DNA from: Minisyncoccia bacterium
GTDB lineage: Bacteria > Patescibacteriota > Minisyncoccia > UBA6257 > 2-01-FULL-56-20
Assembly: GCA_050015515.1 (NCBI GenBank)
Contig: JBEKBG010000007.1
Coordinates: forward strand, 1 to 41,805
Length of the DNA: 41,805 bases
Direction of reading: 5' to 3'
Shown here: positions 2,588-41,805 of the stretch, piece by piece
How positions within the stretch are numbered: the stretch's first letter is position 1
Layout of the letters: the number at the start of each line of letters is the position of its first letter
Notes under the pieces: model-generated
The model's database searches: none
Seen by the model: only the letters and a program-made list of their open reading frames with translations
What the model was told of the DNA's origin: nothing
Translations under genes and position numbers: made by a program

Positions 2588-2632
2588 TGCCGCAAGTGTA
2601 CCAAAAAATGAGGCACTCTCACAAGGAAGGAG

Positions 2633-2875
2633 CTATGGCTTGACGATTTTCTCGAGCGCTAAAATACGCTTATTGTGATCCTTGAGCTCGATATTAATAT
2701 CGCCGATAGCGGACATGATCCGTGTTTCCATTCGAAACAGATCCTGCTTGGTTGCCATTTTTTCTTCCCATGCAGCAAATTTTCCGTCTATTGCATCAAA
2801 GCGTTTTTCGTTGGCGCGCGACTCTTTTTCTATCATCACTGCGAGGTCATCTATCGTGGTTGTTTTTTTATTCAT
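2633..2875 (-). CDS. Small coiled-coil hypothetical protein
   Basis: ORF from MNKKTTTIDDLAVMI with ATKQDL motif and heptad pattern. Confidence 0.65.
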   Translation of the reverse strand: MNKKTTTIDDLAVMIEKESRANEKRFDAIDGKFAAWEEKMATKQDLFRMETRIMSAIGDINIELKDHNKRILALEKIVKP

Positions 2876-2965
2876 ACACAAAAGCATACGCTTTTATATT
2901 GCCAAGTCAAAAGGTTTTTAATGATTTTTTAATCACTGAAGATTGACCATTTACTTTATGACGCC

Positions 2966-3535
2966 TTAGAAATCCAACAAAATTCTTATTTCTTTTTCCG
3001 CCGCAATAGGATCGCTGAATGCTTTAAAGTCATATTTTTTAGCTTCCTCCGCATAACGAGGTCGTTCCCAACCCCAAAAGGCCTCAGCTTCTTTTTTTAT
3101 CAATTCATCAGTGCGACCCCAGCGGGGCTCCTGTTTATTACGTTCCAAAATCGTATCAAATGATTCTCCAAGTACGACAATGCCTTGAAATTTTAAATCT
3201 CGCTTAGCCAAGTGCGGTAATATATTAACCCCCTCGAATATCGTGGGTTTTCCTAAACGCTGAATCTCTTCTATTTTTTTAAAAATTGCCGGCCATAGTG
3301 CTTCCGACTGGTTTTTTAAATCCTCCCATTCTTGATTAGGGGACGTCATCTGCCAATAATTTTCTTCATTTTTATTCCAAAAGAAATCTACCCATTTTTT
3401 TAATTCTGGATCACTCCGAAATTCATCTCGCCAATCATCAATTTTAACGAAGGAGATACCGAGAGATTCGGAAACCTTCTTTGCTAGATAACTCTTTCCT
3501 GCTGTAGGTATCCCTGTAATAAATACATATTTCAT
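2966..3535 (-). CDS. P-loop NTPase / small-molecule kinase (adenylate/gluconate kinase-like fold), AT-rich gene
   Basis: N-terminal Walker A ITGIPTAGKS, IFEG strand, lid-like ERNKQEPRW. Confidence 0.75.
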   Translation of the reverse strand: MKYVFITGIPTAGKSYLAKKVSESLGISFVKIDDWRDEFRSDPELKKWVDFFWNKNEENYWQMTSPNQEWEDLKNQSEALWPAIFKKIEEIQRLGKPTIFEGVNILPHLAKRDLKFQGIVVLGESFDTILERNKQEPRWGRTDELIKKEAEAFWGWERPRYAEEAKKYDFKAFSDPIAAEKEIRILLDF

Positions 3536-3591
3536 ATAAATAATTATAACTGATAATTTTATAAAGGCTGGATTTGAAAAAAACCTATCAC

Positions 3592-3743
3592 CTCTCGCGC
3601 CAGCATCGTATTCTGCGAGGGGCTCCGCAGGCGGTTCGGCATGGTCCGTTCGTTCTGACGAACGGCGAACCGCCGAGGACTGAGCGAGCCCATCGCTGGG
3701 TGGGCGAAGCGTACCCTCGCAGAATACGATGCTGGCGCGAGAG
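3592..3743. repeat. Fold-back element: perfect 30-bp inverted arms around a 92-nt branched core (GGGTAC family)
   Basis: 3592-3621 is the exact reverse complement of 3714-3743; interior has GCTC/GAGC, ccgttcgt/acgaacgg and gcccatc/ggtgggc stems. Confidence 0.9.
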
Positions 3744-3746
3744 CCT

Positions 3747-5804
3747 CTATATCTTCTGCAACGTCAGCGTGAACATCAGTCGCCCGGGCGTGCTGGTGGA
3801 ATTGTACGTAAAGCTCGCAAGACCGTTCTCGGCGAACGCATAGCCGAGCGGCGCATCCACTTCGATGTGATAATTCCCCGTCGCGCCGCTCGGGCGTTCG
3901 AAAATAAATTGATATTGCACACCGGCGGCGGGCAGCGCGAATAAGTTGCGCGAGTAATCGAACGAGAGCGTGGATGACTGGCCCGCATACGTTCGCGACC
4001 ACACGGCAAACACCTGCTTACCCGATTCCGTATGCGTCGTTACTTTTGGATAACTGAAATTTTGCTGCGTCGCTGAAGCGATGGCGAGCACGTTCGGGTC
4101 GGTGCTATAGCCGTCGCGCGCATAGTTGATCGGCGCAGGGACGCTCTTCGCGATTCCGCCACTCTGGTTCTGCAACGTGCTCCCGTTCGGCACAAAGATC
4201 TGCATATAATCCTGGTTGGTCGTTTGATACCACCAGTATGGACTTTGGTTGCCGTTATGCGTGCGCGTGATGGTGAGGTTTGTGGTCAGCGTGCCGTCGC
4301 TCCCGATCGCAGCGTCGTAGCTAATATCCTGCACCATATACAGCTCCGACTTATCGCTGTTGATATCCGCGTTCACGATCGCAAGATAATCACCGTTGAA
4401 GTTTTGCGGGAGCTGATAGACATCGCCCGTCGCGCCGTACGCGTTGGCGAACGTCTCAAACGCAGGGTTGGTCGCATAAAACATTAAATCTTTATTGGAA
4501 ATCCAGTTGAGTGCGAGCCCAAGTATCTGTTGTTTCTGCGCATCCGTGGAAGACGCAAGTTGTTGGATGATCGCGGGGTAGAGCTGCGACAACACCGCCT
4601 TCGGATACGTAGCATTGCCTCCACCGGACTTTGCCTGGCCTGCCTGCACGATCTTTTGGATCTGCGTCACGAGATTGTCGGAAGTGAATGTCGTTGATGC
4701 GACGTTAATCGGTCCCGTCACCGAGAGCAGATCGCTCATCACCTGCGGCGTCACCGCGACAACGCCATCGAATGTGGTGGATGGCGTGGCCGCTTCAAAC
4801 ATACTGATCGTCTCCGACGCGGACGTCGGGAAGTCAAAGAACCAGTTCGCATCAGCGGGGCGGAACGCGATCTCTTCCAACTGCAGCGGCACGGGCGGTT
4901 CGATCTTTTGTTTGAACGCCGTGTCCACATCCGCAACATCATGAAACGCGATGTTAGAGATCTTCCCGTTGTTGATAGAGACATCCGCATAGCTTCCCAA
5001 AAATCCCCCGCCCGGACGCATCTCCGACGGATTTTGGAAAAGCACAAGGAGGTGGTGTGTGGTTGACGCATCGGAGAGCCATGGCACAAACGCATCCAAA
5101 AAAGTTTCCGCGCCCTTTATCTGCGTGGTCAGTGCCAGATAGCTTTCCCCGCTGATCGGCGACGCGGTGCCCAATGACGATGCCGCGCCGGAGAGCGCGC
5201 CGCTGTCCGCGTCGATCGCGGTAAGCGTGTCGCGCACACTCGCAAGGTCTGCAGCGAGCGTGCTGCTCCCATTCCCGGAAACAAATCCGAACGCATCATT
5301 TTCAATGCTCGTTATATTGTTTGAAAGTGTTGTTAGTTGATTGGAGAGATCGGTGAATGACCGGATCGTGGCGCTGCTTCCCGCGAAAAAAGAGACAAGA
5401 GATCCCCAAGGCCCATCCGCCGCCGACGAGGCGTTCAATGATGAGAATTCTTGCGCGGCGGACTGTGGATTCAAGTTCTGCAGATCCTGCACACCCGCTT
5501 GCAACGTACCGATCCGTGATGAGATCGTCGCCGCAATCTCGCGCTTCACCAAATAATATGAAACCGCAAAGCCGCCAATAAAAAGCACGATCAGCCCGGC
5601 AGCGGCCCACTTGATGCCGCGCGGGAGCGGTTGCCGACGATCCTCGCCACGAAACCGCCAATAATTGCTGTTCGTCACCGGAATGTCGCGCAAGTGGTCG
5701 GTGTTTTCCTTCACCTCGCGCTGGGTGATCTTTACTAGCTCGTCCGCACGGATATCATCCGCCGCATGCTCCGACTGCAGTTTTTTCTCCTCGCGATCAG
5801 CCAT
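3747..5804 (-). CDS. DUF4012 domain-containing membrane-anchored protein
   Basis: Single N-terminal TM; LLVLFQNPSEMRPGGGFLGSY, DANWFFDFPTSA and DGVVAVTP motifs typical of DUF4012. Confidence 0.85.
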   Translation of the reverse strand: MADREEKKLQSEHAADDIRADELVKITQREVKENTDHLRDIPVTNSNYWRFRGEDRRQPLPRGIKWAAAGLIVLFIGGFAVSYYLVKREIAATISSRIGTLQAGVQDLQNLNPQSAAQEFSSLNASSAADGPWGSLVSFFAGSSATIRSFTDLSNQLTTLSNNITSIENDAFGFVSGNGSSTLAADLASVRDTLTAIDADSGALSGAASSLGTASPISGESYLALTTQIKGAETFLDAFVPWLSDASTTHHLLVLFQNPSEMRPGGGFLGSYADVSINNGKISNIAFHDVADVDTAFKQKIEPPVPLQLEEIAFRPADANWFFDFPTSASETISMFEAATPSTTFDGVVAVTPQVMSDLLSVTGPINVASTTFTSDNLVTQIQKIVQAGQAKSGGGNATYPKAVLSQLYPAIIQQLASSTDAQKQQILGLALNWISNKDLMFYATNPAFETFANAYGATGDVYQLPQNFNGDYLAIVNADINSDKSELYMVQDISYDAAIGSDGTLTTNLTITRTHNGNQSPYWWYQTTNQDYMQIFVPNGSTLQNQSGGIAKSVPAPINYARDGYSTDPNVLAIASATQQNFSYPKVTTHTESGKQVFAVWSRTYAGQSSTLSFDYSRNLFALPAAGVQYQFIFERPSGATGNYHIEVDAPLGYAFAENGLASFTYNSTSTPGRLMFTLTLQKI

Positions 5805-5846
5805 AGGGATATTTTAGCACGATATTTTTGTTATACTAAAAATACT

Positions 5847-7841
5847 ATGATAAAAAAACTCACTTCCTGGTTCACTGCTACCGCCCTCGTACTGATCTGC
5901 ATCACTTCATTCGGCCTGATGTTCTACGCGTCGCGCACTGATTCCGCGATCATGGACGAGCTCGCACACATCCCCGCCGGCTACGGTTACGTGAGCCAAC
6001 TCGATTACCGGTTGAACCCCGAGCATCCCCCGCTCGTGAAAGCGCTCGCGATGCTGCCGGTGCTGATATTCGTGCAGCCAACATTCCCCACAAACAACGC
6101 GGCGTGGACAACGGAAGTGAACGGGCAGTGGGATATGGGCACCGCGTTCCTCTATAATTCGGGCAACGACGCGAATGCGATCATCCAGGTGGGGCGCGTG
6201 ATGCCGATCCTGCTCACCATCCTCACCATCATTCTCGTCTACTTTCTCGCGCGGCGGTTTGTGGGAAAACTTTGGGCGCTTCTGCCGACATTCCTCTTTG
6301 CGCTCGACCCGACCGTGCTCGGGCACGGGCATTATGTGACGACCGACCTCGGCGCTGCGTTCGGCGTCATTCTCGCCATATTTTTCTTTTTGAGATATAT
6401 CAATGATCCGTCCACGAAAAATTTGTGGTACGCCGGGCTCGCGTTCGGCGTGGCGCAGGTCGCCAAATTCTCAACGCCCTTACTCGTCCCGCTCTTTATC
6501 TTTCTCTTTATCGTTTTATGGCTGCGCGACCTCATCGCGCAATGGAGCACGACCGATGCGTCACGCCGCGCAAAAACGTTTTTTGCAAAGCTGTGCCGCT
6601 CCGCGTGGAAGTGCGCGCTCATCTTTGTGATCGGCTACGCGTTCATCGTCTATCCGATCTATTTCTTATTCACCGCCGGCTATCCGGTCCAAAGGCAGGT
6701 TTCTGACACGACCGCGATCCTCACTTCGTTTGCTACTGGCCCCACACCAGCCGACCAACTATGCCACGGCATGCGATGCATCGCCGACGCGGATATCTGG
6801 ATGGCAGGACATCGCCTTACGCAACCGATCGCGGAGTACTCGCTCGGCATCCTAATGGTGTTGCAACGCGCGGACGGTGGCAACACGATCTACTTCCTCG
6901 GCCACGTAGCGCAAAGCGGCGGCTGGATCTACTTCCCCGCGCTCTTCCTTTTGAAAGAACCGATCCCGACGCTCATCATCGTCTTCCTCGCACTCGCGCT
7001 CGCCGCGTGGTGGACCATTAAAAAAACATTAAAACGCAGATCCACCGGCGGGTCGACGATTGGACGGCGGATACTCGATTACCTCACGCTCAATTTCGGC
7101 GAATTCTCGCTCGCGTCGTTCATCGTCCTCTATTGGGGGTACAGCATGCACAGTCCGTTGAACATCGGCATCCGGCATATCCTACCCACCCTCCCGCTCA
7201 TCTTCATCCTTGCCGCCGTCGTGTGGAAAAAATGGATCACAAAATTAAATTTCGGTGCGATGGCGTCCTCAAGCTCTTTCGCCGCGCTCGCACGATCATT
7301 CCTTTCTCCCGTCATCAAATATATTTTTCTCATCTTGCTCCTCGCATGGTTGCTTCTCGAGACATTCTTCGCCGCGCCGTACTTCCTCTCGTACTTCAAT
7401 GAGTTCGGCGGTGGCGTCCAGGGCGGCTATCACTTCGTGACCGATTCCAATTACGACTGGGGACAGGACTTACTCCGGCTGCAATCGTGGGTGAACGCCA
7501 ACCCGCAGGTGGATAAGATCGCAGTGGATTATTTCGGCGGCGGCGATCCGCACTATTATCTCGGCAATAAAGAAGTGAATTGGTCATCAGCGCAAGGCAA
7601 TCCCGCCGACCAGGGTATTCACTGGCTTGCCGTTTCCGTAAACACGCTCGAGCTCGCCACCCAGCCGCTCGCGCCCGGCCAGACGCGCAACGCGTCGGAC
7701 ACCTACTCGTGGCTCACCGCGCTGCGCGCTTCCAGTTCGGGCGCCGACGCGACCGGTACCTGGCTCGGCGGCGATATGGGCAACGTCCCCACCCCGGACG
7801 CGCGCGCAGGAACATCGATCTTCATCTATCATCTGCAATAA
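5847..7841 (+). CDS. GT-C fold membrane glycosyltransferase (PMT/ArnT, GT39/83-like)
   Basis: DE motif (IMDELAH), NPEHPPLVK, many TM segments, DSNYDWGQD; start re-called at ATG 5847 after TGnTATACT. Confidence 0.85.
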   Translation: MIKKLTSWFTATALVLICITSFGLMFYASRTDSAIMDELAHIPAGYGYVSQLDYRLNPEHPPLVKALAMLPVLIFVQPTFPTNNAAWTTEVNGQWDMGTAFLYNSGNDANAIIQVGRVMPILLTILTIILVYFLARRFVGKLWALLPTFLFALDPTVLGHGHYVTTDLGAAFGVILAIFFFLRYINDPSTKNLWYAGLAFGVAQVAKFSTPLLVPLFIFLFIVLWLRDLIAQWSTTDASRRAKTFFAKLCRSAWKCALIFVIGYAFIVYPIYFLFTAGYPVQRQVSDTTAILTSFATGPTPADQLCHGMRCIADADIWMAGHRLTQPIAEYSLGILMVLQRADGGNTIYFLGHVAQSGGWIYFPALFLLKEPIPTLIIVFLALALAAWWTIKKTLKRRSTGGSTIGRRILDYLTLNFGEFSLASFIVLYWGYSMHSPLNIGIRHILPTLPLIFILAAVVWKKWITKLNFGAMASSSSFAALARSFLSPVIKYIFLILLLAWLLLETFFAAPYFLSYFNEFGGGVQGGYHFVTDSNYDWGQDLLRLQSWVNANPQVDKIAVDYFGGGDPHYYLGNKEVNWSSAQGNPADQGIHWLAVSVNTLELATQPLAPGQTRNASDTYSWLTALRASSSGADATGTWLGGDMGNVPTPDARAGTSIFIYHLQ

Positions 7842-7856
7842 GTTCCCCTACGACAT

Positions 7857-7888
7857 AGGCGGCACCCTCACGTGTCGCCTTTCTTTTT
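7857..7888 (+). terminator. Intrinsic terminator of the glycosyltransferase gene
   Basis: aggcggcac-loop-gtgtcgcct followed by ttcttttt. Confidence 0.7.
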
Positions 7889-7901
7889 ATCTTTTATCAC
7901 G

Positions 7902-8026
7902 TAGCAAAAACACAAAGGGATATTATTTTGAGGGCTCTCGGAGACGACGAAGGTCGCCGAGAGGGAGCGGCCGCGCAGCAGCGCGGAACGCGTACCTCAA
8001 GATAATATCCCTTTGTGTTTTTGCTA
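7902..8026. repeat. Fold-back element: 32-bp inverted arms (1 mismatch) around a branched core (GGGTAC family)
   Basis: 7902-7933 vs 7995-8026; right arm includes the ftsQ stop codon; core gctc...gagc, ccgcgc/gcgcgg, GCGTA. Confidence 0.9.
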
Positions 8027-8869
8027 TTTATAGAACAATCGGTTCTCCGTCCGGCAATCAACGTACTGCAGTTTATCAAAATTAGATTGCAACATCAGCT
8101 TCTGGATGACCGGCAAATATTCGTCCGCCGGGAATTGCAGACTGAAGTAGATCGTCGGCCCGTTCGCCGTTTGCACATCCACTTCCTGGAGCGAGAGATC
8201 GTTCAGCTCAATGGCCTGCACGCTGAGGCCGCTCGCGTGCAAGACGTTCATGATGGAAATAAAATTCGGGAGGAACTCGTCCGACAGCACTTTTTGATTC
8301 AGCCCGCGCGGCGCTTGCGCACGATCATATACCGTGTAGACCAGATCGCCCTGCGTCTCCCCGGCCTTTTCAAAGATCGTGCCGGTGTTATCGAACCAGT
8401 AGCAGGGTGCGTTCGTATCCGTCGCAGTGGTCGAAGCCGCGCTTACACCCGGCGATGCGGAAAAACACCAGATGCCGAACGGTGAACGTTCGGTGACGGT
8501 GATAGTGATGGTATGCGAAAAAAAATCTTTGGAGATATTCGCGTTCGCGAGCTGCGGGATCATCTGAAGTTCGCCCTGCGGGATGCTCGCCGGCCACAGC
8601 AGCATATTATCGAACGTGAGTGCGGCGCGGAGAATGTCATGGCTGGGAAACGCGCTTGCCTCCGCGAGCGCGATCACATCCGTGTTTGAGATCGCACTAT
8701 TCCCCTGCACCACCACGTGGTCCACACGGAATACCGGCGAACGAAGCACTAGCCATTGCGCGGCAAAAAATATCCCGTAAAAAATTACCAACCCGAGCGC
8801 GGTTAAAAGATACGCGCGGCGGCGCTTGCGCTTTCTCTTATGGTCGGAAATATACGGCGCGATCTGCAT
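8024..8869 (-). CDS. ftsQ: Cell division protein FtsQ/DivIB
   Basis: Basic N-terminus, one TM, POTRA-like SPVFRVDHVVVQGN...ITITVTER, C-terminal YVDCRTENRLFYK. Confidence 0.8.
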   Translation of the reverse strand: MQIAPYISDHKRKRKRRRAYLLTALGLVIFYGIFFAAQWLVLRSPVFRVDHVVVQGNSAISNTDVIALAEASAFPSHDILRAALTFDNMLLWPASIPQGELQMIPQLANANISKDFFSHTITITVTERSPFGIWCFSASPGVSAASTTATDTNAPCYWFDNTGTIFEKAGETQGDLVYTVYDRAQAPRGLNQKVLSDEFLPNFISIMNVLHASGLSVQAIELNDLSLQEVDVQTANGPTIYFSLQFPADEYLPVIQKLMLQSNFDKLQYVDCRTENRLFYK

Positions 8870-8886
8870 GAATCAATGATACCACT

Positions 8887-8966
8887 CCGCGAAAAGGAAG
8901 GAGGATGCGCCTTCGCAGCATGGAAGATTAAATGCTGCGAAAGCGTATCCTCCTTCCTTTTCGCGG
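8887..8966. repeat. Long hairpin: 35-bp arms (2 mismatches), loop GGAAGATTAA
   Basis: 8887-8921 vs 8932-8966, just downstream of the serS stop. Confidence 0.9.
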
Positions 8967-10316: not shown

Positions 10317-10344
10317 AAAAAGGTCCGCTGTCGCCAGCGGACCC
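10317..10344 (-). terminator. Intrinsic terminator downstream of the GNAT gene
   Basis: On the minus strand ggtccgctg-loop-cagcggacc followed by a T run. Confidence 0.65.
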
Positions 10345-10358
10345 CTGAACCTGCGCGC

Positions 10359-10808
10359 TCATTGTCCTACCGGAAGCGACATGAGGTGATAATTTGAACC
10401 GAACACTTCCAAGGTTCTGAAGCCGAAGTAGTGGAGATAATAGTCAGGAAGGCTTTTCTTCGCGTCTGCGGTAAGAAGGATAAGATGGGCATTCTTCCTC
10501 CTGCCGATCTCTTTAATCAACCGCGCCACGAGTGCCTTGCCTATCCCTCTCCGTTGATGATGGGCAACAACGTTCACCCAAAAAATCTAGTAGATGTTGT
10601 AGTCCATCCACGACTGGATGTATCCGGCGAAGCCGATGATCTGGCCGCGCTCTTCCGCAACGAAATATACCGGCCGCGGGCCCCCACCCGTGGCGAACAT
10701 GTCCCCGATCTCTTTCCTCGCCGATAGTTCATATTTCCGTGAATAATTCTCTCCGACAATCGCGGCAGCCTTTCTCGCTTCACCTTTTCGTAATAGCCTG
10801 ATTCTCAT
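10359..10808 (-). pseudogene. GNAT family acetyltransferase interrupted by an in-frame TAG
   Basis: ORFs 10587..10808 and 10359..10577 are in the same frame: ...SWMDYNIY*IFWVNVVAHHQRRGIGKALV (acetyl-CoA motif A); GGAGG SD upstream. Confidence 0.8.
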
Positions 10809-15509: not shown

Positions 15510-16052
15510 ATGATAATCACCATCGGAGGAAAGGTAGGCGCAGGAAAGTCCACGCTCGCAGCGATGCTATCGCATGAACTGAATTATGAACAGCTGTATG
15601 TGGGCGGCATTTTCCGCGAAATGGCTGCGGAGAAAAATCTCACCATCGAGCAGTTCTATACAGAGCTCAAAGACGATCCCGCAATCGAACAAACCGTGGA
15701 CCAGCGCCAGGCGACGCTCATGCGCGAGAAGGATAACCTTATCGTGAAGGGACGCATCGCGTGGTACTTCGCCAAAAGCAGCCCTTTTAAGATATTTAAC
15801 GTCTTTCTCGCTGTCGATCCCACAACGGGCGCGCGCCGTTCCGGCGAGCGAAAAGAGAACGCAGGACGATCGACCGATGAAATGATCATCGCTACCGCCG
15901 AGCGCGAAAAGATGGAGCACGAGCGATATTCCATGCTCTACGGAATCGAAAACCATCTCGACCCAGCCCACTACGATCTTGTCATTGATACGAGCATGCT
16001 CACTCCACAAGAAACATTCGACAAGGTGATGACGGCGGTGAAAGGACAATAA
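15510..16052 (+). CDS. cmk: Cytidylate kinase (short, archaeal-type family)
   Basis: IITIGGKVGAGKST, GGIFREMA, RY..LYGI, YDLVIDTS. Confidence 0.8.
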   Translation: MIITIGGKVGAGKSTLAAMLSHELNYEQLYVGGIFREMAAEKNLTIEQFYTELKDDPAIEQTVDQRQATLMREKDNLIVKGRIAWYFAKSSPFKIFNVFLAVDPTTGARRSGERKENAGRSTDEMIIATAEREKMEHERYSMLYGIENHLDPAHYDLVIDTSMLTPQETFDKVMTAVKGQ

Positions 16053-16146
16053 AAAAGACACACTGGGTTTCGCTCCGACGTAAGCGACCAACGGAAGTCC
16101 CGTGGAAAACGTCCACTCGCGAAACCCAGTGTGTCTTTTTTATTGT
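16046..16146. repeat. Fold-back element with perfect 28-bp arms between convergent cmk and rplK; may also act as a bidirectional terminator
   Basis: 16046-16073 is the reverse complement of 16119-16146; left arm contains the cmk stop codon; 45-nt interior has small stems. Confidence 0.85.
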
Positions 16147-26685: not shown

Positions 26686-26769
26686 TCCGCAAGCGCTCAT
26701 AGCCGCATACTTTTTGGAGCAATTAATCTTCCTTGCTCCAAAAAGTATGCGGCTATGAGCGCTTGCGGA
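26686..26769. repeat. Long hairpin: perfect 37-bp arms, loop GGAAGATTAA (minus strand)
   Basis: 26686-26722 is the reverse complement of 26733-26769; right arm covers the last codons and stop of rodA. Confidence 0.92.
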
Positions 26770-29205: not shown

Positions 29206-29270
29206 GCATGTGGGTGAGTGTTCTAAAAAACTAGAAGATTAATAGTTTTTTAGAACACTCACCCACATGC
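29206..29270. repeat. Long hairpin: perfect 28-bp arms, loop GAAGATTAA
   Basis: 29206-29233 vs 29243-29270 in the 23S-5S spacer. Confidence 0.92.
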
Positions 29271-29316: not shown

Positions 29317-29383
29317 GATAGTGCGCTGCATGCTTTTGAAAACTATTAATCTGCTAGTTTTCAAAAGCATGCAGCGCACTATC
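29317..29383. repeat. Long hairpin: perfect 29-bp arms, loop GCAGATTAA (minus strand)
   Basis: 29317-29345 vs 29355-29383 in the 23S-5S spacer. Confidence 0.92.
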
Positions 29384-29515
29384 GAATGCAAGTCAGCATT
29401 GGGATGGTTGGCGGGATTATTAGTACGTCTTGGCTAAAAACATTGCTGTCCTTACACCGAACGCCTATCAACGTCATAGTCTATGACGAAATCACGCATA
29501 CCTAATCTTGGGGTG

Positions 29516-29548
<33 letters not shown>

Positions 29549-29690
29549 CTTCCATACATAGCTACCCGGCAATTCACTTGGTAGCAAAGCCGGTAGACCA
29601 GAGGTATGTTCAACCCAGTCCTCTCGTACTAAGGTCAACTCCCCTCAAGTATTAAACGCCTGCAGCAGATAGAGACCGACCTGTCTCACG

Positions 29691-30045
29691 CAACTTCTTT
29701 TTCATCGCCATTACTGGCGGGTTGGACTATACCACCATCTCAATTGAGATGATCGACGTGTTAGCCCGGCATGATTGCCGGACTCCAGTTCTTTCGAACC
29801 AAGTCTCTAAGGGGTCAATGCACAAAAATAAATTTTGCGCACGACTTCCCTCGGTATTATCCTCACGGTCCAGGTCTAGACCACATAAGGACTTCACCGA
29901 TATGAGTCGATTTTCACGCTTTACGATTCGTCGGACGAATGACGAACTTTAATGCAAAGCTTCACTCCTTGGTATCGCTACCAAGGGCCGCCGTTTCTTC
30001 TTTTAACAGTTTCTTTCGTTACCTTCGATTGGGTTATCTACGTTG
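29691..30045 (-). ncRNA. Group I intron at 23S position 2593 (E. coli numbering), no ORF, 355 nt
   Basis: Interrupts GACCGU|CGUGAGA; exon ends in U, intron ends in G; core-like cttagagact and gtatagtcc. Confidence 0.9.
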
Positions 30046-30716
30046 ACGGTCTGAACCCAGCTCACGTGCCACTTTAATTGGCGAACAGCCAAACGCTTGG
30101 GAGCTTCTACACCCCCGCGCTGTGGCGAGCCGACATCGAGGTGCCGAGCATTGTCGTCGCTAGGGACGCTCGGACAATACTAGCCTGTTATCCCCGGAGT
30201 AGCTTTTATCCGGTGTCTCCGGCCTTTCTATGAAGGGCCGTCGGGTCACTAACTTCTGCTTTCGCACCTGCTCGTCTTGTAGGACTCGCAGTCAAGCCAG
30301 CTTTTGCGTTTGCACGTCCTGCCCGATTTCCATCCGGGCTAAGCTGACCTTAATAAACTCCTCCGTTACTCTTTTGGAGGAAAACGCCCCATTTAAACTG
30401 CCTACCAAGCACTGTCTTCGCATGGCTTCCCCGAAGGGTTCCATACGAGTTAGACGTTAAAGTTTTAAAAATGGCTGTTTCATTGTCGGATCCACGTCAC
30501 CCGAAAGCGACGCTTCAAATCCTCACCACTACGCTACGTAGTAAAACTCTAAAATCAATACCAAGCTGCAGTAAAGCTTCCGGGGTCTTTTCGTCCCGCT
30601 GCAGGTATCCCGCGTCTTCACGGGAATCGCATTTTCACCGAGCTCATCGTTGAGACAGTTCTCCGGTCGTTACACCTTTCGTGCGCTTCGGAACTTACCC
30701 GAAAAGGAATTGCGCT

Positions 30717-31166
30717 CAAACATGTTACAACACTTTTTGTTGGCCAAAACATTTCTGCTTGGCTCTCTATGTCGCCATAGAGTTCGGACTATATCTTATC
30801 GCCTTGCGACGATCCTAACGTGTAGTCTCTGAGGATCCTTCGCGCATCGAGTAATGGGTGGGAATGGGATCCGAAGATCCCATTCCCATGGGAGATAACA
30901 CAACTTTGCTGTGTCAATACATTCCGGATGAGCCGAAGCTCAAAATATCCTCTTGCGGGATACCGAATGGCGTTGAACCAAAAGATTCGCGGCGTCACGG
31001 TCCCGCATCGGGAAATGTCGGACTTTGACCTTATGTTTTCGCCCATTATTCGATGCACCAAGTTTCCTGCTGATTGTCCGCATCGATCAAAGATTGTTAC
31101 CTTGCGGTACTTTGATATGCGCGGGTATTCCAGCATATAGTTAGGTTTTACTAAGGCAATGCAATC
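30717..31166 (-). ncRNA. Group I intron at 23S position 1931, 450 nt
   Basis: Interrupts CUAAGGU|AGCG; 5' gccttag guide pairs with the exon; aatcagcagg, ctcagagactac, aagatatagtcc; terminal G. Confidence 0.92.
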
Positions 31167-31180
31167 ACCTTAGAACGATT

Positions 31181-31922
31181 CTTTCACGTTATCACCCGCT
31201 CGTTTTTTAATTTAAGCGGGATCCTCATGGTCGCCCATGAGATCGGACTATATCATCTCTAAAATGTTTTAGAGTCTGGCGTATAGTCTCTGAGGATTCC
31301 TTGATAGTCTATTTCACGTCGTTCCAGTTATATTTACGCCTTCTTCCCCTGCCCTCATTTAAATTTTCTCTGATAGCGACAATTTCTTGAAGTCCTTTTG
31401 GATCAAGATGCTTCCCTTGCTCCATTAAAAATGCAATTTGTCTAAACAGAGAAAAGTTTTTCTGTTTTGATAAGGAAAAGAAAGAAAACTTTTCAAAAAA
31501 CGGTATGACGCGATCAATGATCGAACGATAATCGCCAACAACGAAGTAATGCACTCCGTCCTTTCGATATTGCAATCGTCCGCAACCTAAATGACTTTTT
31601 AATAATTCCAAATTGGCGATGTCGCGCTGGGCCACGTTGAAGGTCATTTGCACCTGCCATCCGAGGCGGTGCCCATTCCCTTTTCGAAGAGAGACGTTAA
31701 AACTTCCCTCTCCATCTGTGAAACCAGAAAGATACCAGCCAACGTTGTCTGGAATTTTCTCAAGCCATTCACGGTTATACCAAGGCCTTTCCTGCTGATT
31801 GTCTGCACCGATCATATTGTCACTATACTCAATCAAGATTAAATCTTTATTAAATATAGTAATGTCGGATACCCAGAGTTTCCAGCATTTGGCCAGATTT
31901 TATAACTACAATCGTTATGTTT
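31181..31922 (-). mobile_element. Group I intron at 23S position 1917 carrying a homing endonuclease, 742 nt
   Basis: Interrupts AACUAU|AAUCG; core aatcagcagg, ctcagagactata, gatatagtcc; terminal G. Confidence 0.92.
31309..31836 (-). CDS. Single-motif LAGLIDADG homing endonuclease
   Basis: WYLSGFTDGEGSF, F.VAQ, LGCG, IPFFEK..K..NF..F motifs; lies inside the L1917 intron. Confidence 0.95.
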   Translation of the reverse strand: MIEYSDNMIGADNQQERPWYNREWLEKIPDNVGWYLSGFTDGEGSFNVSLRKGNGHRLGWQVQMTFNVAQRDIANLELLKSHLGCGRLQYRKDGVHYFVVGDYRSIIDRVIPFFEKFSFFSLSKQKNFSLFRQIAFLMEQGKHLDPKGLQEIVAIRENLNEGRGRRRKYNWNDVK

Positions 31923-33341
31923 ATAGTTATCGCTGACATTGACGAGGGCTTGACTCAGTGAGCAGTACAGATTGCTCCATACCACCCCCAAGCTTGACCT
32001 TCTCGCATCGGTCAGGTGTCACCCCCTATACATCCTGTTGCCAGTTAGCAGGGAGCTGTGTTTTTGGTAAACAGTCGCCAGAGATTCTTTAGCTGCGGCC
32101 CTACTTGCCCCGGCTTACGCCGGACTTCATAGGGCAGGCCTTATTGCTAACTTACGGCCGCTATTTTGCCTAGTTCCTTAACGATGAATCACTCGTTCCC
32201 CTTGGGCTACTCGCCCTATCCACCAGTGTCGGTTTACGGTACGGAGACCCTCGAAAGGCACTTCACAGATGTCGGCCAAGTAAATTCTTAACCTTCTCTC
32301 GGTACACGCTTGCGCTCAGTACAAAGAATGCCAAACCAATAAGGCACATCTGCTTATCTCCTTTGTCCTCTGGTTATGATCGTACGGTCGGGCTGGAATA
32401 TTAACCAGCTTCCCATCGACTGCCCCTTTCGGGATCGCCTTAGGACCGCCTCACCCGTGGTTGATTGCCAGTGCCACGGAAACCTTGGATTTTCGGGGTT
32501 CCAATTTCTCATTGGGATTGTGGTTACTCATTCCAACATTTTCTCTTCCGGCCGCTCCAGTCGCCCTCGCGGGTCGACCTTCTCTGCAGGCCGAAATGCT
32601 CTCCTACCACTTACACCTCCCGAAGGAAGTATAAATTCGTATCTTCGGTACCATGCTTAGCCCCGGTACATTTTCGGCGCCGCGACCCGTCGAATAGTGA
32701 GTTGTTACACACTCTTTAAAGGATGGCTACCTCTAAGCCAACCTCCTATCTGTCTATGGGTTACGACTACCTTTCACACTTAGCATGGATTTAGGGACCT
32801 TAGATGACGATCTGGGCTCTTCCCCTCGCGACCACGGAGCTTAGCCCCCGCAGTCTAACTAGCAAGATCTTGACTCTCGGTATTCGGAGTTTGATTGATC
32901 GTTCGGTCTTTCGACCTGTAACGATCATCCAGTGCTCTACCCCCAAGAGGAACTCTTGCCGCCAGTCCTAAAACTGTTTCGGAGAGAACCAGCTATTACG
33001 TTATTCGATTAGCTTTTCACTCCTTACCTCAGCTCATCCGAAGATTTTGAACAATCAACCGGTTCGGGCCTCCCTCCCGATTTCTCGGGAGTTCACCCTG
33101 GCCAAGGCAAGCTCATAACGCTTCGGGTCTATCTTCTGCTGCATATATGTCGCCCTATTCAGACTCGCTTTCGCTATGCCTACACGCTATGCGCGCTTAG
33201 ACTGCAACAAAAAATAAGTCGTTGGATCATTCTTCAATAGGCACACTGTTACACTCGAACTCCCTTGCGGGAGATCGTTCGTGCTTCAGTTCCTTGTAGG
33301 CAAACGGTTTCAGGTTCTATTTCAACGGCCTCACCGGCCTG

Positions 33342-33378
<37 letters not shown>

Positions 33379-33951
33379 ATCTAGAAAAGTATTTAGCCTT
33401 ACCTGATAGTACAGGTATATTCCTCCGGAACTGTTTTACTCCGAAGTACTCGAGTTAAAAAACTAAGGAGACCAATTGTTTTCGTCTAGGGGGCTATCAC
33501 CCGCTCTGGCGCCGCTTTCCAGACGGCTTTGACTAACAAAAGATTTTTTTACTCCTCCACCTCTTAATGAGTAACGAAACACACACTTGCGTATGTGCTA
33601 CGTTACTTATTAAAAGAGCGTCTTTAGACTATACCCTAAGGTCGCAATATAAATCACAACCTTAGTTTGGGCTGTTCCCTGTTCTCTCGCCGATACTAGG
33701 GGAATAACTGATTTGTTCTTTTTTCCTCCGCTTACTGGAATGTTTTACTTCAGCGGGTACGCGAATCGACTTGCGTCGAAACAATTGAGGTTTACTCAAC
33801 TAGGTTTCCCCATTCGGAAATCCCCGGATCATAGATTGCTACGCATCTCCCCGAGGCATATCGTTGCTACGCCACGTCCTTCATCGCCTTTTCTAGTCTA
33901 GGCATCCACCGTTCGCCCTTATTTGCCAACCATCCCAATGCTGACTTGCTC

Positions 33952-34032
33952 GTGATGTGCACGAATTAGTTTTTTTGACGGAAATGCCAGGTAGGAACCT
34001 GACCGTCAAAAAAATTAATTCGCGCACATCAC
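33952..34032. repeat. Fold-back element: 25-bp arms around the conserved 31-nt core
   Basis: Arms 33952-33976/34008-34032 (2 mismatches); core gacggaaatgccaggtaggaacctgaccgtc. Confidence 0.9.
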
Positions 34033-34989: not shown

Positions 34990-35070
34990 GAAACAAAACC
35001 ATCCTCTCGTTTTTGACGGTCACGTTCCTACGTGGCATTTCCGTCAAAAACGAGAGGATGGTTTTGTTTC
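34990..35070. repeat. Fold-back element: perfect 25-bp arms around the same 31-nt core in the opposite orientation
   Basis: Arms 34990-35014/35046-35070; core reverse complement gacggaaatgccacgtaggaacgtgaccgtc. Confidence 0.92.
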
Positions 35071-38917: not shown

Positions 38918-39289
38918 TCAAGAAGGAGTAAACCCTCTCCGTCCAAGACCGTTCCGGTCGAGGAGGGCGCGCGGCACTTTCTGTGCCGCCAACTTGGTGA
39001 ATATCACCCGCGTTTCCGTTACCGCATCGCCTTCGGGAAGGGCAAGCACCGCATCGCGATATGCCTCGAACTCTCCCATCTCTATCGTTCCGTCTTTTAT
39101 TTTTTTCCAGATATCCCAGTCCTCCTCCGTCAGATGCGATGCATCAAATTGGGAGTTCCGCTCATTCGTCCCCGGAACGAAAAAATTGGCGTTGACCGGC
39201 TCCCGGTTCGCAAAATCCGCCATCTCCGTGCGGAACTGGTCTATCGAATATCCACCTTCGACCCCCTTTTTTTCCAACCCTGTTTCCAT
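38918..39289 (-). CDS. Hypothetical protein (123 aa)
   Basis: ORF from METGLEKK with TATGAT 6 nt upstream; protein-like composition. Confidence 0.6.
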   Translation of the reverse strand: METGLEKKGVEGGYSIDQFRTEMADFANREPVNANFFVPGTNERNSQFDASHLTEEDWDIWKKIKDGTIEMGEFEAYRDAVLALPEGDAVTETRVIFTKLAAQKVPRALLDRNGLGRRGFTPS

Positions 39290-39311
39290 GGTCATATCAT
39301 ACCTTATTCTT

Positions 39312-39427
39312 TGTGCCGACGGCAGGGATCGCCCGCGAGTCTCGCGCTCGCCGTCGCTCGCACGAGCTCTGGGCACCGCCTCAGCGATTTTCTCTGGTGA
39401 GAAAATCGCTTCCGGCGTTCGATCCCT
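39312..39427 (-). repeat. Duplicated tRNA 3' end (20 bp) joined to a structured insert
   Basis: tgtgccgacggcagggatcg at 39312-39331 is identical to 39552-39571; agggatcg pairs with cgatccct at 39420-39427; internal 12-bp hairpin 39383-39410. Confidence 0.85.
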
Positions 39428-39439
39428 TCTACAAACAAA

Positions 39440-39552
39440 AGCTTATCCAACATGCCCCGAAAGGGTACTTCGGAGCCGCGCAGGCGGCGAGAACTAAGGC
39501 GCGCGTTCAGTAGAACGCGACGCCGTCCCTTTCGGGGCATGTTGGATAAGCT
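39440..39552. repeat. Fold-back element: perfect 26-bp arms around a branched core (GGGTAC family)
   Basis: 39440-39465 vs 39527-39552, abutting the tRNA 3' end; core starts GGG|TAC then the gccgc/gcggc hairpin. Confidence 0.88.
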
Positions 39553-39553
39553 G

Positions 39554-39625
39554 TGCCGACGGCAGGGATCGAACCTGCGACCTTGGCCTTATGAAAGCCC
39601 TGCTCTACCACTGAGCTACGTCGGC
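39554..39625 (-). tRNA. tRNA with CAT anticodon (elongator Met or Ile2), CCA not encoded
   Basis: gccgacg acceptor with G1-C72, D arm gctc/gagc, loop TT-CAT-AA, T loop TTCGATC. Confidence 0.92.
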
Positions 39626-39638
39626 GCCGACACAAGAA

Positions 39639-39667
39639 ACTATAAGCGAAACGCCGGGGATTTTCAA
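39639..39667 (-). promoter_or_regulatory. Promoter of the tRNA-CAT gene
   Basis: TTGAAA-17nt-TATAGT on the minus strand. Confidence 0.6.
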
Positions 39668-39717
39668 TGGACACTACCTCTCGTCCGTGCTATAAAAGGA
39701 ATAGTTAAGGAGGATAC

Positions 39718-41500: not shown

Positions 41501-41805
41501 GTCGCTCTGATCGGGCCTGAAGGGTCCGGCAAGACGCATCTGGCGATGATTTGGGCGGCGGCGGCGGGTGCGCGCGTCGTTGCCGCGCGATCGCTCGGCG
41601 AAGCGGAGCTTCCAGCTGCGCTCGTGACCGGAGCGCTGGTCGTCGAGGACGCCGCGGCGGCAGACAACCGCGTGCTGTTCCATCTCATCAATCTCGCTCG
41701 CGAGGAAGAGGCCGCGCTGCTGCTCACCGCGACGACGGCGCCGGTAACCTAGCCGGCCGCCATCCCCGACCTCGCCTCGCGGCTGCGCGCCTTGCCGGTG
41801 GCGAC
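41501..41805 (+). other. Fragment of an alphaproteobacterial-like HdaA/DnaA-family ATPase gene with an in-frame TAG
   Basis: VALIGPEGSGKTHLAMIW...LVVED...LFHLINLARE...T*PAAIPDLASRLRALP; visibly higher GC than the rest of the window. Confidence 0.75.

Follow-up and report, generated by a model that had tools for sequence, protein, structure and literature searches.

The three palindromic elements at positions 3592-3743, 7902-8026 and 39440-39552 of the window (the whole stretch of 41,805 nucleotides that was analysed) are members of one family, H, in which a GC-rich, Y-shaped core with a three-way junction sits atop a locus-specific inverted repeat. We lean towards the reading that H palindromes, in this genus of uncultured Patescibacteria of the Paceibacteria/Parcubacteria type, are made by template switching without a transposase and serve as terminators or RNase III sites.

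Three elements of the window share a three-way-junction core

All three copies lie downstream of a gene or tRNA on the minus strand. The gene upstream of copy 1 is a minus-strand DUF4012 gene, and the FtsQ-type POTRA protein encoded next to copy 2 is a weak match (21 bits against a 23-bit cut-off). The features are as follows.

3592-3621, no strand: copy 1 left arm, 30 nt, perfect inverted repeat, locus-specific
3622-3713, plus strand: copy 1 core, a long H three-way-junction variant whose P2 tip carries an additional hairpin of 35 nt
3714-3743, no strand: copy 1 right arm, its outer end 3 nt short of the DUF4012 stop codon (3747-3749)
7902-7933, no strand: copy 2 left arm, 32 nt, with a single T.G mismatch
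7934-7994, plus strand: copy 2 core, consisting of P2, P3 and the junction GTA
within 7934-7994, plus strand: P2 of the copy 2 core, a conserved internal loop CGGAG/CGAG and a hairpin with a GAAG loop
within 7934-7994, plus strand: P3 of the copy 2 core, GCG, a bulge and a 6-bp hairpin with an AGCA loop
7995-8026, no strand: copy 2 right arm, with the FtsQ-like stop codon as its final 3 nt and a T-tract in its outer part
8024-8869, minus strand: FtsQ-like gene, stop codon at 8024-8026 within the copy 2 right arm
39440-39465, no strand: copy 3 left arm, 26 nt, perfect
39466-39526, plus strand: copy 3 core, oriented as copies 1 and 2
39527-39552, no strand: copy 3 right arm, directly adjoining the 3' end of tRNA-Met
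39553-39625, minus strand: tRNA-Met (CAT), followed directly on its sense strand by copy 3 and then by a U-rich tract

The inverted repeat of copy 1 (3592-3621/3714-3743, 30 nt) encloses a spacer of 92 nt, and those of copy 2 (7902-7933/7995-8026; 32 nt, 97% identity) and copy 3 (39440-39465/39527-39552; 26 nt, 100%) each enclose 61 nt. On the plus strand, a covariance model scored copy 2 at 81.3 bits, copy 3 at 80.6 bits and copy 1 at 14.0 bits (E 0.094); on the minus strand, copy 3 gave only 13.1 bits. Copy 1, which folds at -107.1 kcal/mol (z -14.5), is resembled by three other long copies elsewhere in the genome.

The original prediction had described copies 1 and 2, read on the minus strand, as an arm, GAGG(G)TACGC, a GC hairpin, GCTC, a variable stem-loop, GAGC, CCCTC and an arm. 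This layout is present, and so is the proximity to stop codons that it had pointed out, as the DUF4012 stop lies 3 nt from copy 1 and the FtsQ-like stop is inside the copy 2 arm. The third copy it had placed at 39440 is indeed a family member, but its plus strand does not correspond to the minus strand of copies 1 and 2, since all three match on the plus strand. The 5' GGGTAC of copy 3 is a coincidence that arises where the end of P1 is joined to the start of P2.

Structure and conservation of the H core

The genome of 774 kb holds 27 short and 4 long H copies, and a covariance-model search for further copies returned 28 matches. Structural alignment of the copies yielded a consistent three-way-junction consensus. 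In the alignment from this genome, 97.6% of cells were paired, compared with 75.2% in shuffles, and 18 of the 24 pairs had changes on both sides. The congeners gave a similar picture: among 77 copies in 71 fetched loci from 15 congeners, 98.7% of cells were paired, and 22 of 24 pairs showed changes on both sides. The loop and junction nucleotides (GGAG, CGAG, the GAAG loop, the AGCA loop and AAC) were 90-100% conserved. These unpaired tip nucleotides are almost invariant between genera, and H is recognisable in other genera where every stem differs. Fold z-scores of H elements ranged from -12 to -15.6.

GTAC occupies the homologous junction in 12 of 27 H copies, the rest having GTCC, GACC or GTGCC. 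The arms are perfect inverted repeats of 20-44 nt, unique to each locus. The earlier suggestion that architecture is conserved while sequence is not thus applies to the arms and fails for the cores, whose identity reaches 100% within the genome and 98% between species.

Rfam 15 searched over the window gave only rRNA and tRNA at the gathering score, and when 12 H loci and 39250-39700 were scanned by E-value, nothing but noise from plant miRNA hairpins appeared, far under gathering scores. P3 was considered as a domain V of a group II intron and dropped, as it has neither a GNRA loop nor an Rfam match.

About eight tip families, H among them, are carried by hairpins throughout the genome

An inverted-repeat scan of the whole genome found 112 hairpins, compared with 0, 1, 4, 0 and 2 in five dinucleotide shuffles. 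These palindromes are 60-170 nt long and bear conserved apical modules of 10-90 nt. With about 110 hairpins per genome, the tip families number about eight including H; they are unrelated to one another and have a common architecture.

Among the genomes searched, H was matched in 22 of 22 of the genus and in 32 of 36 of the family. Outside the family, matches were found in 3 of 24 further families in the order and in 5 of 150 additional genomes drawn from across the phylum, so that H is rare in the phylum beyond its own genus and family. In the literature searched, which excluded subscription journals, we found no published account of such elements in Patescibacteria/CPR.

Cores are decoupled from arms, and elements come and go at orthologous sites

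In 38 pairs of H copies whose cores are at least 85% identical (100% in one pair), outer-arm identity was 0.28, against 0.26 for random sequence. Searched against the rest of the genome, the arms were unique: there were only 18 weak partial matches of at most 21 nt, and the idea that arms are copies of other genomic DNA was rejected on these matches. K-mer enrichment revealed no shared motif in the arms other than A/T tracts. No common flanking motif was seen at the hairpin loci, where the flanks differ at every locus.

The orthologous sites show gain and loss. Copy 1 is missing in all four congeners examined, and copy 3 with its neighbours in three of three. Five congeners have an empty copy 2 site (1-13 nt) and five have a small ORF there; in G008 the site is occupied by a different H copy with other arms and another core subtype. 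Near copy 2, a family-A hairpin at 8887-8966 is precisely missing in three congeners and is replaced by a hairpin of another family in G003. Comparison of orthologous hairpins with G001, where the flanks are about 95% identical, showed changes on both sides at two arm positions and in two pairs of P3.

Different tip families thus occupy the same orthologous site, and we claim this much only. Swapping of tips within a standing hairpin was considered for family B in G000 against H in G003, and for family B in G000 against G005 at tRNA-Pro, and was rejected because arm similarity was at background level. In general, arm homology at sites with different tips did not exceed background: scores as high were reached by 7 to 29 of the 102-103 unrelated arms.

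Terminator-like features and tests of strand

In 44 of 90 hairpins the outer 3' arm contains at least six T in eight nucleotides, compared with 6.4% of random 22-mers; in half of the hairpins a T-tract is unclear. A U-tract follows the stem directly in copies 2 and 3, and in copy 1 a U-run begins only 9 nt beyond the stem. Hairpins abut 11 of the 46 tRNAs. An RNase III gene is present in the genome, and the perfect duplexes exceed 20 bp, as would be needed for RNase III processing hairpins.

Relative to the upstream gene, as placed by crude ORF calls, the tips are antisense in 13 cases and sense in 5 in this genome, and antisense in 18 and sense in 5 in the congeners, where some of the loci are orthologous. 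A purely mutational origin would predict neither this bias nor the near-invariance of the unpaired tip nucleotides, and both point to a strand-specific function or reader. Such signals would suit a core that is a functional structured RNA module of 3' UTRs or tRNA trailers, either a protein-binding tag or a small Y-shaped RNA freed when the encoded RNase III cleaves the stem. Junction and loops would then be maintained by selection at the RNA level, with the arms as no more than a delivery or processing stem. The strong fold z-scores, the two-sided changes in 22 of 24 congener pairs, the conserved loops and junctions and the recognition of H across genera are likewise in its favour.

Wobble pairs, by contrast, do not bear out an RNA strand. 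Counted on the plus strand, the arms contain 28 A.C and 26 G.T, and relative to the transcript the counts are 18 against 22, with no excess of G.U over A.C in that sense; the arms carry no RNA strand signal by these counts. In the orientation of the model there is an excess (30 G.T against 5 A.C), but 23 of these 30 lie in the ambiguously aligned inner P1, and this excess runs opposite to most transcripts. The wobble test is weak, with conflicting results. An RNA module is also hard to reconcile with the equal folding of both strands, with eight unrelated tip families of the same architecture, with copies gained and lost at the same site between congeners and with the missing Rfam match. We regard it as rather unlikely.

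Arms contain gene and tRNA ends

By the same crude ORF calls, an arm contains an ORF stop codon in 35 of 92 hairpins, and 9 others have one within 3 nt. In G008, the arm includes the conserved final codons of the FtsQ-like gene. As the arms contain gene and tRNA ends, we give low weight to the idea that they are spacer-like matches to phage DNA.

The composite at tRNA-Met includes three features beyond copy 3.

39312-39331, no strand: direct copy of the tRNA-Met 3' end, 20 nt, identical to 39552-39571, on the ancestral flank
39324-39427, minus strand: Y module, another H-like three-way junction, divergent and closed by a stem of tRNA-Met T-arm sequence; 13.4 bits on the minus strand, z -6.5
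39417-39427, no strand: inverted copy of the tRNA-Met T-arm, 11 nt, pairing with 39564-39574

Here an insertion of 240 nt is missing from three congeners. A perfect direct repeat of 20 nt, taken from the tRNA-Met 3' end and beginning in the T-loop, forms its boundaries. The composite also occurs next to tRNA-Glu in G005 and next to another tRNA in G004, and each of the four Y modules in the genome precedes a copy of the 3' end of its local tRNA.

Such an arrangement would be expected of a mobile element that is non-autonomous and depends on some unrecognised integrase-, nuclease- or casposase-like enzyme directed at the 3' ends of genes and tRNAs, with direct repeats of 16-20 nt as target-site duplications or att sites. 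A core that is 98% identical in a species whose coding DNA is about 75-81% identical is also compatible with an enzyme. The repeats, however, match each local tRNA, which an element carrying an attP could not do for four different tRNAs, and copies 1 and 2 showed no direct repeats on their flanks. Moreover, the arms do not travel with the core, and searches for a Y1 transposase and a reverse transcriptase identified no candidate enzyme; the genome has a single RVT_1 gene. An enzyme-driven origin is improbable in our judgement. Classical MITE features are mixed: the outer repeats are not conserved and direct repeats were not seen at copies 1 and 2, whereas the 20-nt repeat of the tRNA end bounds the copy 3 composite.

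For the template-switch reading, the relevant marks are arms that are inverted copies of local sequence and arm changes that are concerted. Both were found overall, except in the inner arms at the two empty sites of the window. No relative examined carries either arm as an ancestral flank at these sites, and inverted flank copying therefore leaves their inner arm sequence unexplained.

Gene content and the Y1 transposase

The original prediction had likened the elements to REP and IS200/605 ends, with GTAC as a guide tetranucleotide and a RAYT/TnpA(REP) homologue to be sought. A structured, repeated, non-autonomous family stands, and the specific analogy is not supported. A REP/REPIN- or IS200/605-type element with a GTAC guide and a RAYT/TnpA Y1 transposase would fit extragenic palindromes beside gene 3' ends and the GTAC of copies 1 and 2, but it is highly improbable, as PF01797 (Y1/RAYT) had no match in this 98%-complete genome while the same search was positive in 6 of 14 control genomes, GTAC is an internal rather than a terminal junction that most copies lack, and the arms, conserved in REP, REPIN and IS200/605 ends, are here unique to every locus, the pattern of conservation being the reverse of that in REP. 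A REP/REPIN identity was rejected on the same grounds, with outer arms at random identity even where cores are identical; a PATE derived from IS200/IS605 was rejected because TnpA is absent, the flanks differ at each locus and a common flanking motif was not seen. Searches of the genome with SbcD, MutS_V and Rho_RNA_bind likewise gave no match.

Discussion

The explanation that we favour by template switching would work as follows. Switching of the template during replication would make, perfect and lengthen palindromes at the DNA level, through quasipalindrome correction and inverted copying of flanks, and a dedicated transposase would not be needed for their formation. Tip modules may spread between hairpins as templated insertions. 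In a genome without the SbcCD hairpin nuclease and MutS, the resulting palindromes may be tolerated. Judging from their sequence, the long stems with A/T tracts would act as intrinsic terminators, often bidirectional, in a cell without Rho, and the perfect duplexes of more than 20 bp are predicted to be RNase III processing sites or hairpins that stabilise 3' ends. The invariant unpaired tip nucleotides suggest a putative reader. A bolder version, in which small Y-shaped modules spread through these ultra-small, repair-poor genomes by ectopic template switching, palindromes lengthen by reverse-copying gene and tRNA ends and build terminators and RNase III sites, and cleavage frees the tips as a class of small RNAs with a reader of its own, is speculative, and we hold it only tentatively.

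Several known systems resemble H in part. Bidirectional intrinsic terminators and RNase III hairpins of the phage T7 type are the textbook classes for comparison. Like them, the hairpins lie directly after stop codons and tRNAs, show an A-tract/stem/T-tract symmetry and have duplexes of RNase III length; unlike ordinary terminators, H-type stems are 3-5 times longer, perfect and topped by conserved apical modules of 10-90 nt. Rickettsia palindromic elements, Correia/NEMIS and ERIC are small, dispersed, hairpin-forming repeats without a transposase, some of which are terminators or RNase III substrates. They are conserved over their whole length and have terminal inverted repeats, and the Rickettsia elements typically insert in-frame into genes. 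In H, by contrast, the arms vary and the apex is conserved, and in-frame insertion into genes was seen neither in 14 loci of five other genera nor in this genome. Three open frames inspected at these 14 loci place the element upstream of the real start, and the two ORFs that cross H copies in this genome look spurious.

REP, BIME and REPIN sequences are, as described in PMC3733652, likewise short, multicopy extragenic palindromes near gene 3' ends with a proposed role in termination and mRNA stabilisation, and the families described there include GTAG- and CGTC-tagged ones. REP conserve the palindrome and a terminal tetranucleotide and encode RAYT, whereas H conserves only the apex and has unique arms. 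Template switching has been described as a source of perfect hairpins, of homogenised arms and of spacer inversion (PMC8794818, PMC8604942). The perfect arms, concerted double changes and inverted copies of adjacent conserved sequence seen here are akin to the cases in PMC8794818, PMC8604942 and PMC5941160; those described in these sources are single events in rRNA, yeast genes and short proteobacterial repeats, whereas here there are about 110 palindromes with conserved tip families. Hairpin and palindromic repeats of organelles, as presented in PMC2800124 and PMC2670323, are also modules of GC-rich hairpins; they have invaded intergenic DNA in small genomes poor in repair, with no mobilising enzyme encoded. 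They differ in host and sequence, and the abstracts of these two papers do not describe long, locus-specific, perfect arms with a conserved apex.

The combination of a fixed apex with free arms is the reverse of the conservation pattern known from described bacterial repeat families. If the template-switch reading is true, the punctuation of the genome (transcript ends and the trailers of tRNA and rRNA) in a large group of uncultured bacteria would be built by a mutational process and not by the enzyme of a mobile element. It would also explain how transcripts end in streamlined CPR genomes without Rho, offer a natural system for the study of template-switch mutagenesis and point to putative factors that recognise the roughly eight tip modules. 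On a practical level, assemblies of CPR metagenome bins probably tend to break at such hairpins, and gene callers are likely to be misled by them.

The flagged elements are part of a genome-wide set of hairpins

The original prediction of three structured elements in the window is borne out, with inverted repeats found at all three positions. Its statement that two of them start at or within 3 nt of a stop codon holds for copies 1 and 2; copy 3 adjoins the 3' end of a tRNA-Met gene.

Flagged elements and the genes beside them
3592-3621/3714-3743: copy 1, perfect 30-nt arms, 92 nt between them
3747-5804, minus: DUF4012 gene, stop codon 3 nt from the end of copy 1
7902-7933/7995-8026: copy 2, 32-nt arms with one mismatch, 61 nt between them
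8024-8869, minus: FtsQ-type POTRA gene (weak match, 21 bits against a 23-bit cut-off), stop codon included in the right arm of copy 2
39440-39465/39527-39552: copy 3, perfect 26-nt arms, 61 nt between them
39553-39625, minus: tRNA-Met, 3' end adjoining copy 3

As single strands, the copies fold into a long stem with a three-way junction on top, whichever strand is taken (z-scores -12 to -15.6). The genome carrying the window (G000; 774 kb in 23 contigs, 98% complete, the window being its contig C7) has as its nearest public relatives by LepA uncultured MAGs labelled Candidatus Paceibacterota, Parcubacteria or Minisyncoccia. A whole-genome inverted-repeat scan (seed 10, arms of 20 nt or more, spacer up to 260 nt) returned 112 hairpins, compared with 0, 1, 4, 0 and 2 in five dinucleotide-preserving shuffles. 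These hairpins sort into about eight families of one architecture, in which near-perfect arms of 20-44 nt, different at every locus, carry a conserved apex. The flagged copies belong to family H, which has the largest tip among them. The outer 3' arm was T-rich in 44 of 90 hairpins, against 6.4% of random 22-mers. Seven hairpins of the window fall outside family H.

Other hairpins of the window
8887-8966: family A (10-nt loop)
16046-16146: E variant
26686-26769: family A
29206-29270: A-like
29317-29383: A-like
33952-34032: family B (21-nt tip)
34990-35070: family B

Of these seven, two are located between the 5S and 23S rRNA genes, another is 20 nt upstream of the 5' end of the 23S gene, and a fourth adjoins tRNA-Pro. 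The 23S rRNA match (29403-33932, minus) spans 4530 nt for a 2925-position model, the excess of about 1.6 kb being inserted sequence, either introns or expansion segments; such insertions are common in CPR. The interval from lepA to the DUF4012 gene (2630-3747) is a variable hot spot, where each of five congeners has different small genes or none and G000 has an AAA_18/AAA_33-like gene of 189 aa together with copy 1.

Family H tips share one covarying structure

Twenty-one short copies were aligned, leaving out four long variants then known; six further short copies were found later. The RNAalifold consensus is a three-way junction closed by 2-3 nt (GTA, GT or GA), with the arms as P1. In P2, a stretch of 3-6 bp leads through a conserved internal loop (5' CGGAG, 3' CGAG) to a hairpin whose loop is GAAG or GCAG; P3 has GCG followed by a bulge and a 6-bp hairpin whose loop reads AGCA. 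Paired cells made up 97.6% of the alignment, compared with 75.2% in shuffles and 39-47% with partners slid by 1-3 columns, and 18 of the 24 pairs showed changes on both sides. The elements matched no Rfam family.

The covariance model built from this alignment gave 28 matches in G000 at E <=0.01, comprising 27 short copies and one long copy. With filters off, copies 2 and 3 scored 81.3 and 80.6 bits, and copy 1, which has a 35-nt insertion in the P2 tip, scored 14.0 bits (E 0.094), all on the plus strand; the minus strand of copy 3 reached only 13.1 bits. Because the model matches each on the plus strand, all three copies have one orientation, and the pairing of the copy 3 plus strand with the minus strand of copies 1 and 2 was mistaken. 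The proposed GTAC junction did not hold for the family: GTAC occupies the homologous junction in only 12 of 27 copies, and the other side of the junction in copy 3 only. A weak match at 41701-41774 (minus; 16.7 bits, E 0.015), GC-rich, near the contig end and devoid of the P3 stem, is probably due to chance or a decayed copy.

Within the genus, every one of the 22 genomes gave matches to the model (1-35 per genome), and within the family 32 of 36 did. Beyond it, matches came from 3 of the order's 24 other families and from 5 of 150 further genomes sampled evenly across the phylum (E <=1e-5, 1-4 matches each). Seventy-one loci from 15 congeners, taken as the best-scoring matches of the genus, family and order search and hence biased towards well-kept copies, hold 77 H copies; pairing there extends to 98.7% of cells, and both partners have changed in 22 of 24 pairs. 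Outside the stems, loop and junction nucleotides such as GGAG, CGAG, GAAG and A-G-C-A are 90-100% conserved in the congener copies and recognisable in other genera despite every stem differing. In-frame copies within genes were seen neither in G000 nor among 14 loci of 5 other genera. A literature search, in which most subscription journals were not covered, gave no account of such elements in Patescibacteria.

Cores and arms have separate histories

Cores were at least 85% identical in 38 of 351 H copy pairs of G000, one pair being 100% identical, while the 25-nt outer arms of these 38 pairs were no more alike than chance (0.28 identity; random 25-mers give 0.26). Searched across G000, the H arms had no other copy, only 18 weak matches of at most 21 nt. 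Over 65 nt, the copy 2 core shares 98% identity with a copy from the congener G015; G015 and G000 have about 75-81% identity in coding DNA.

Orthologous sites were compared among congeners. The copy 2 site stands empty, with a spacer of 1-13 nt, in G009, G005, G003, G006 and G016, carries an 825-nt insert in G018, and in G008 holds another H copy, different in both arms and core subtype. At the same site (window 7842-8023), G001, G015, G014, G013 and G011 carry a short conserved ORF, which has a promoter of its own (loci L035, L037, L041, L042 and L040, respectively); by eye it has about 25-35 codons and begins MDFF, MNFF or MNIL, and the promoter reads TTGACA with an extended -10-like element. 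The family-A hairpin at 8887-8966 is precisely missing in G009, G005 and G015 and replaced by a hairpin of another family in G003. Copy 1, in its variable region, was absent from all four congeners examined. For two empty sites of the window, the inner arm sequence was carried by no relative examined.

At shared H loci, arm homology was clear for G001 and G018, borderline for G015 and absent for G006 and G014, both of which carry other core subtypes too. Tip orientation was the same in 5/5 shared loci, as read from flank matches rather than scored directly. Relative to G001, two arm positions and two P3 pairs were altered on both sides, with flanks about 95% identical. Tip replacement within a conserved hairpin was looked for too, but the arm similarity at candidate sites did not exceed background. 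Conserved tips spread separately from the arms; the manner of this spread we infer.

Arms incorporate gene and tRNA ends

Among 92 hairpins (arms shorter than 22 nt and hairpins inside a long ORF dropped; ORF calls crude), 35 include in an arm the stop codon of an ORF (100 aa or longer), and in a further 9 such a codon falls within -2 to +3 nt. At the copy 2 site of G008, the conserved last codons of the FtsQ-like gene, stop included, form the outer 9 nt of one arm, and the opposite arm carries an inverted copy of them. Hairpins also adjoin 11 of 46 tRNA genes, at -4 to +5 nt.

Direct evidence that arms derive from local sequence comes from the surroundings of copy 3. The tRNA-Met lies on the ancestral flank in G001, G003 and G015. 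In G000, a 240-nt insertion sits between perfect 20-nt direct repeats of the tRNA 3' end (39312-39331 and 39552-39571). Within the insertion are copy 3, 11 nt of the T-arm copied in inverted orientation (39417-39427) and a Y module, which is another three-way junction, H-like but divergent. The composite recurs in G005, next to a tRNA-Glu, and in G004, next to a different tRNA, and in both cases the copied sequence is that of the local tRNA. G000 has four Y modules, each beside a tRNA (one a truncated remnant) and a hairpin of some family. Each lies beyond the tRNA-adjacent hairpin, whose family differs every time, and is followed by a direct, partly decayed copy (9-21 nt) of its own tRNA 3' end, from the T-loop on.

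Y modules of G000
39324-39427, minus: Y module of the window (site 39312-39571), closing stem of tRNA T-arm sequence
C1:16282-16600: Y module site
C3:18500-18819: Y module site
C2:10100-10420: Y module site

Such an arrangement recalls att sites of the T-loop class, or else nested palindromisation. On contig C2 (~10330-10420, minus), a tRNA-Glu-like remnant has the 5' acceptor strand and D-arm fused to the 3' acceptor strand, without anticodon and T arms, and adjoins a family-D hairpin and the Y module. ARAGORN found only tRNA-Glu(CUC) in the G000 assembly, and no tRNA-Glu(UUC).

A DNA-level account and its rivals

A DNA-level account of the hairpins is best supported. Template switching during replication, documented for single hairpins and short repeats (PMC8794818, PMC8604942, PMC5941160), would create, perfect and extend the palindromes. 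A genome without hairpin nuclease and without mismatch repair would tolerate them, and a Rho-less cell could employ them as putative terminators. In the 98%-complete assembly, we found no SbcD (TIGR00619), no MutS domain V (MutS_V, PF00488) and no Rho RNA-binding domain (Rho_RNA_bind, PF07497). RNase III is present (C3:74378-74773), and the hairpins may also be sites for it.

Arm mismatches of all families gave no strand signal: 2840 pairs held 82 mismatches, with A.C 28 and G.T 26, and wobbles relative to the upstream gene were 18 in transcript sense and 22 in antisense. The wobble evidence from congener H copies, read in model orientation, is mixed, with G.T against A.C at 23 to 14 in outer arms (1241 pairs), 7 to 3 in P2 and P3, and 23 to 2 in inner P1, where bulges make the alignment ambiguous.

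Tips are biased in orientation relative to the gene 3' end facing them. Among 31 G000 copies, 13 were antisense, 5 sense and 2 convergent (11 no call); among 75 congener copies, 18 were antisense, 5 sense and 6 had genes on both sides (46 no call), the two counts not being independent as some loci are orthologous. Copies 1, 2 and 3 are all antisense to the upstream gene or tRNA, so an upstream transcript would meet GGTAC first in copies 1 and 2, the direction in which they had originally been read; copy 3 has GGGAC at the equivalent junction. This bias, together with the invariant unpaired tip nucleotides, argues for a strand-specific reader of the tips, and two rivals to the DNA-level account are therefore retained on both grounds. 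That the tips are functional RNA is a minority reading, at perhaps one chance in four, and an enzyme yet to be recognised behind the elements is a good deal less probable. The analogy to REP elements and RAYT is very improbable; no Y1 transposase (Y1_Tnp, PF01797) was found in the 98%-complete G000 assembly, which has one reverse transcriptase.
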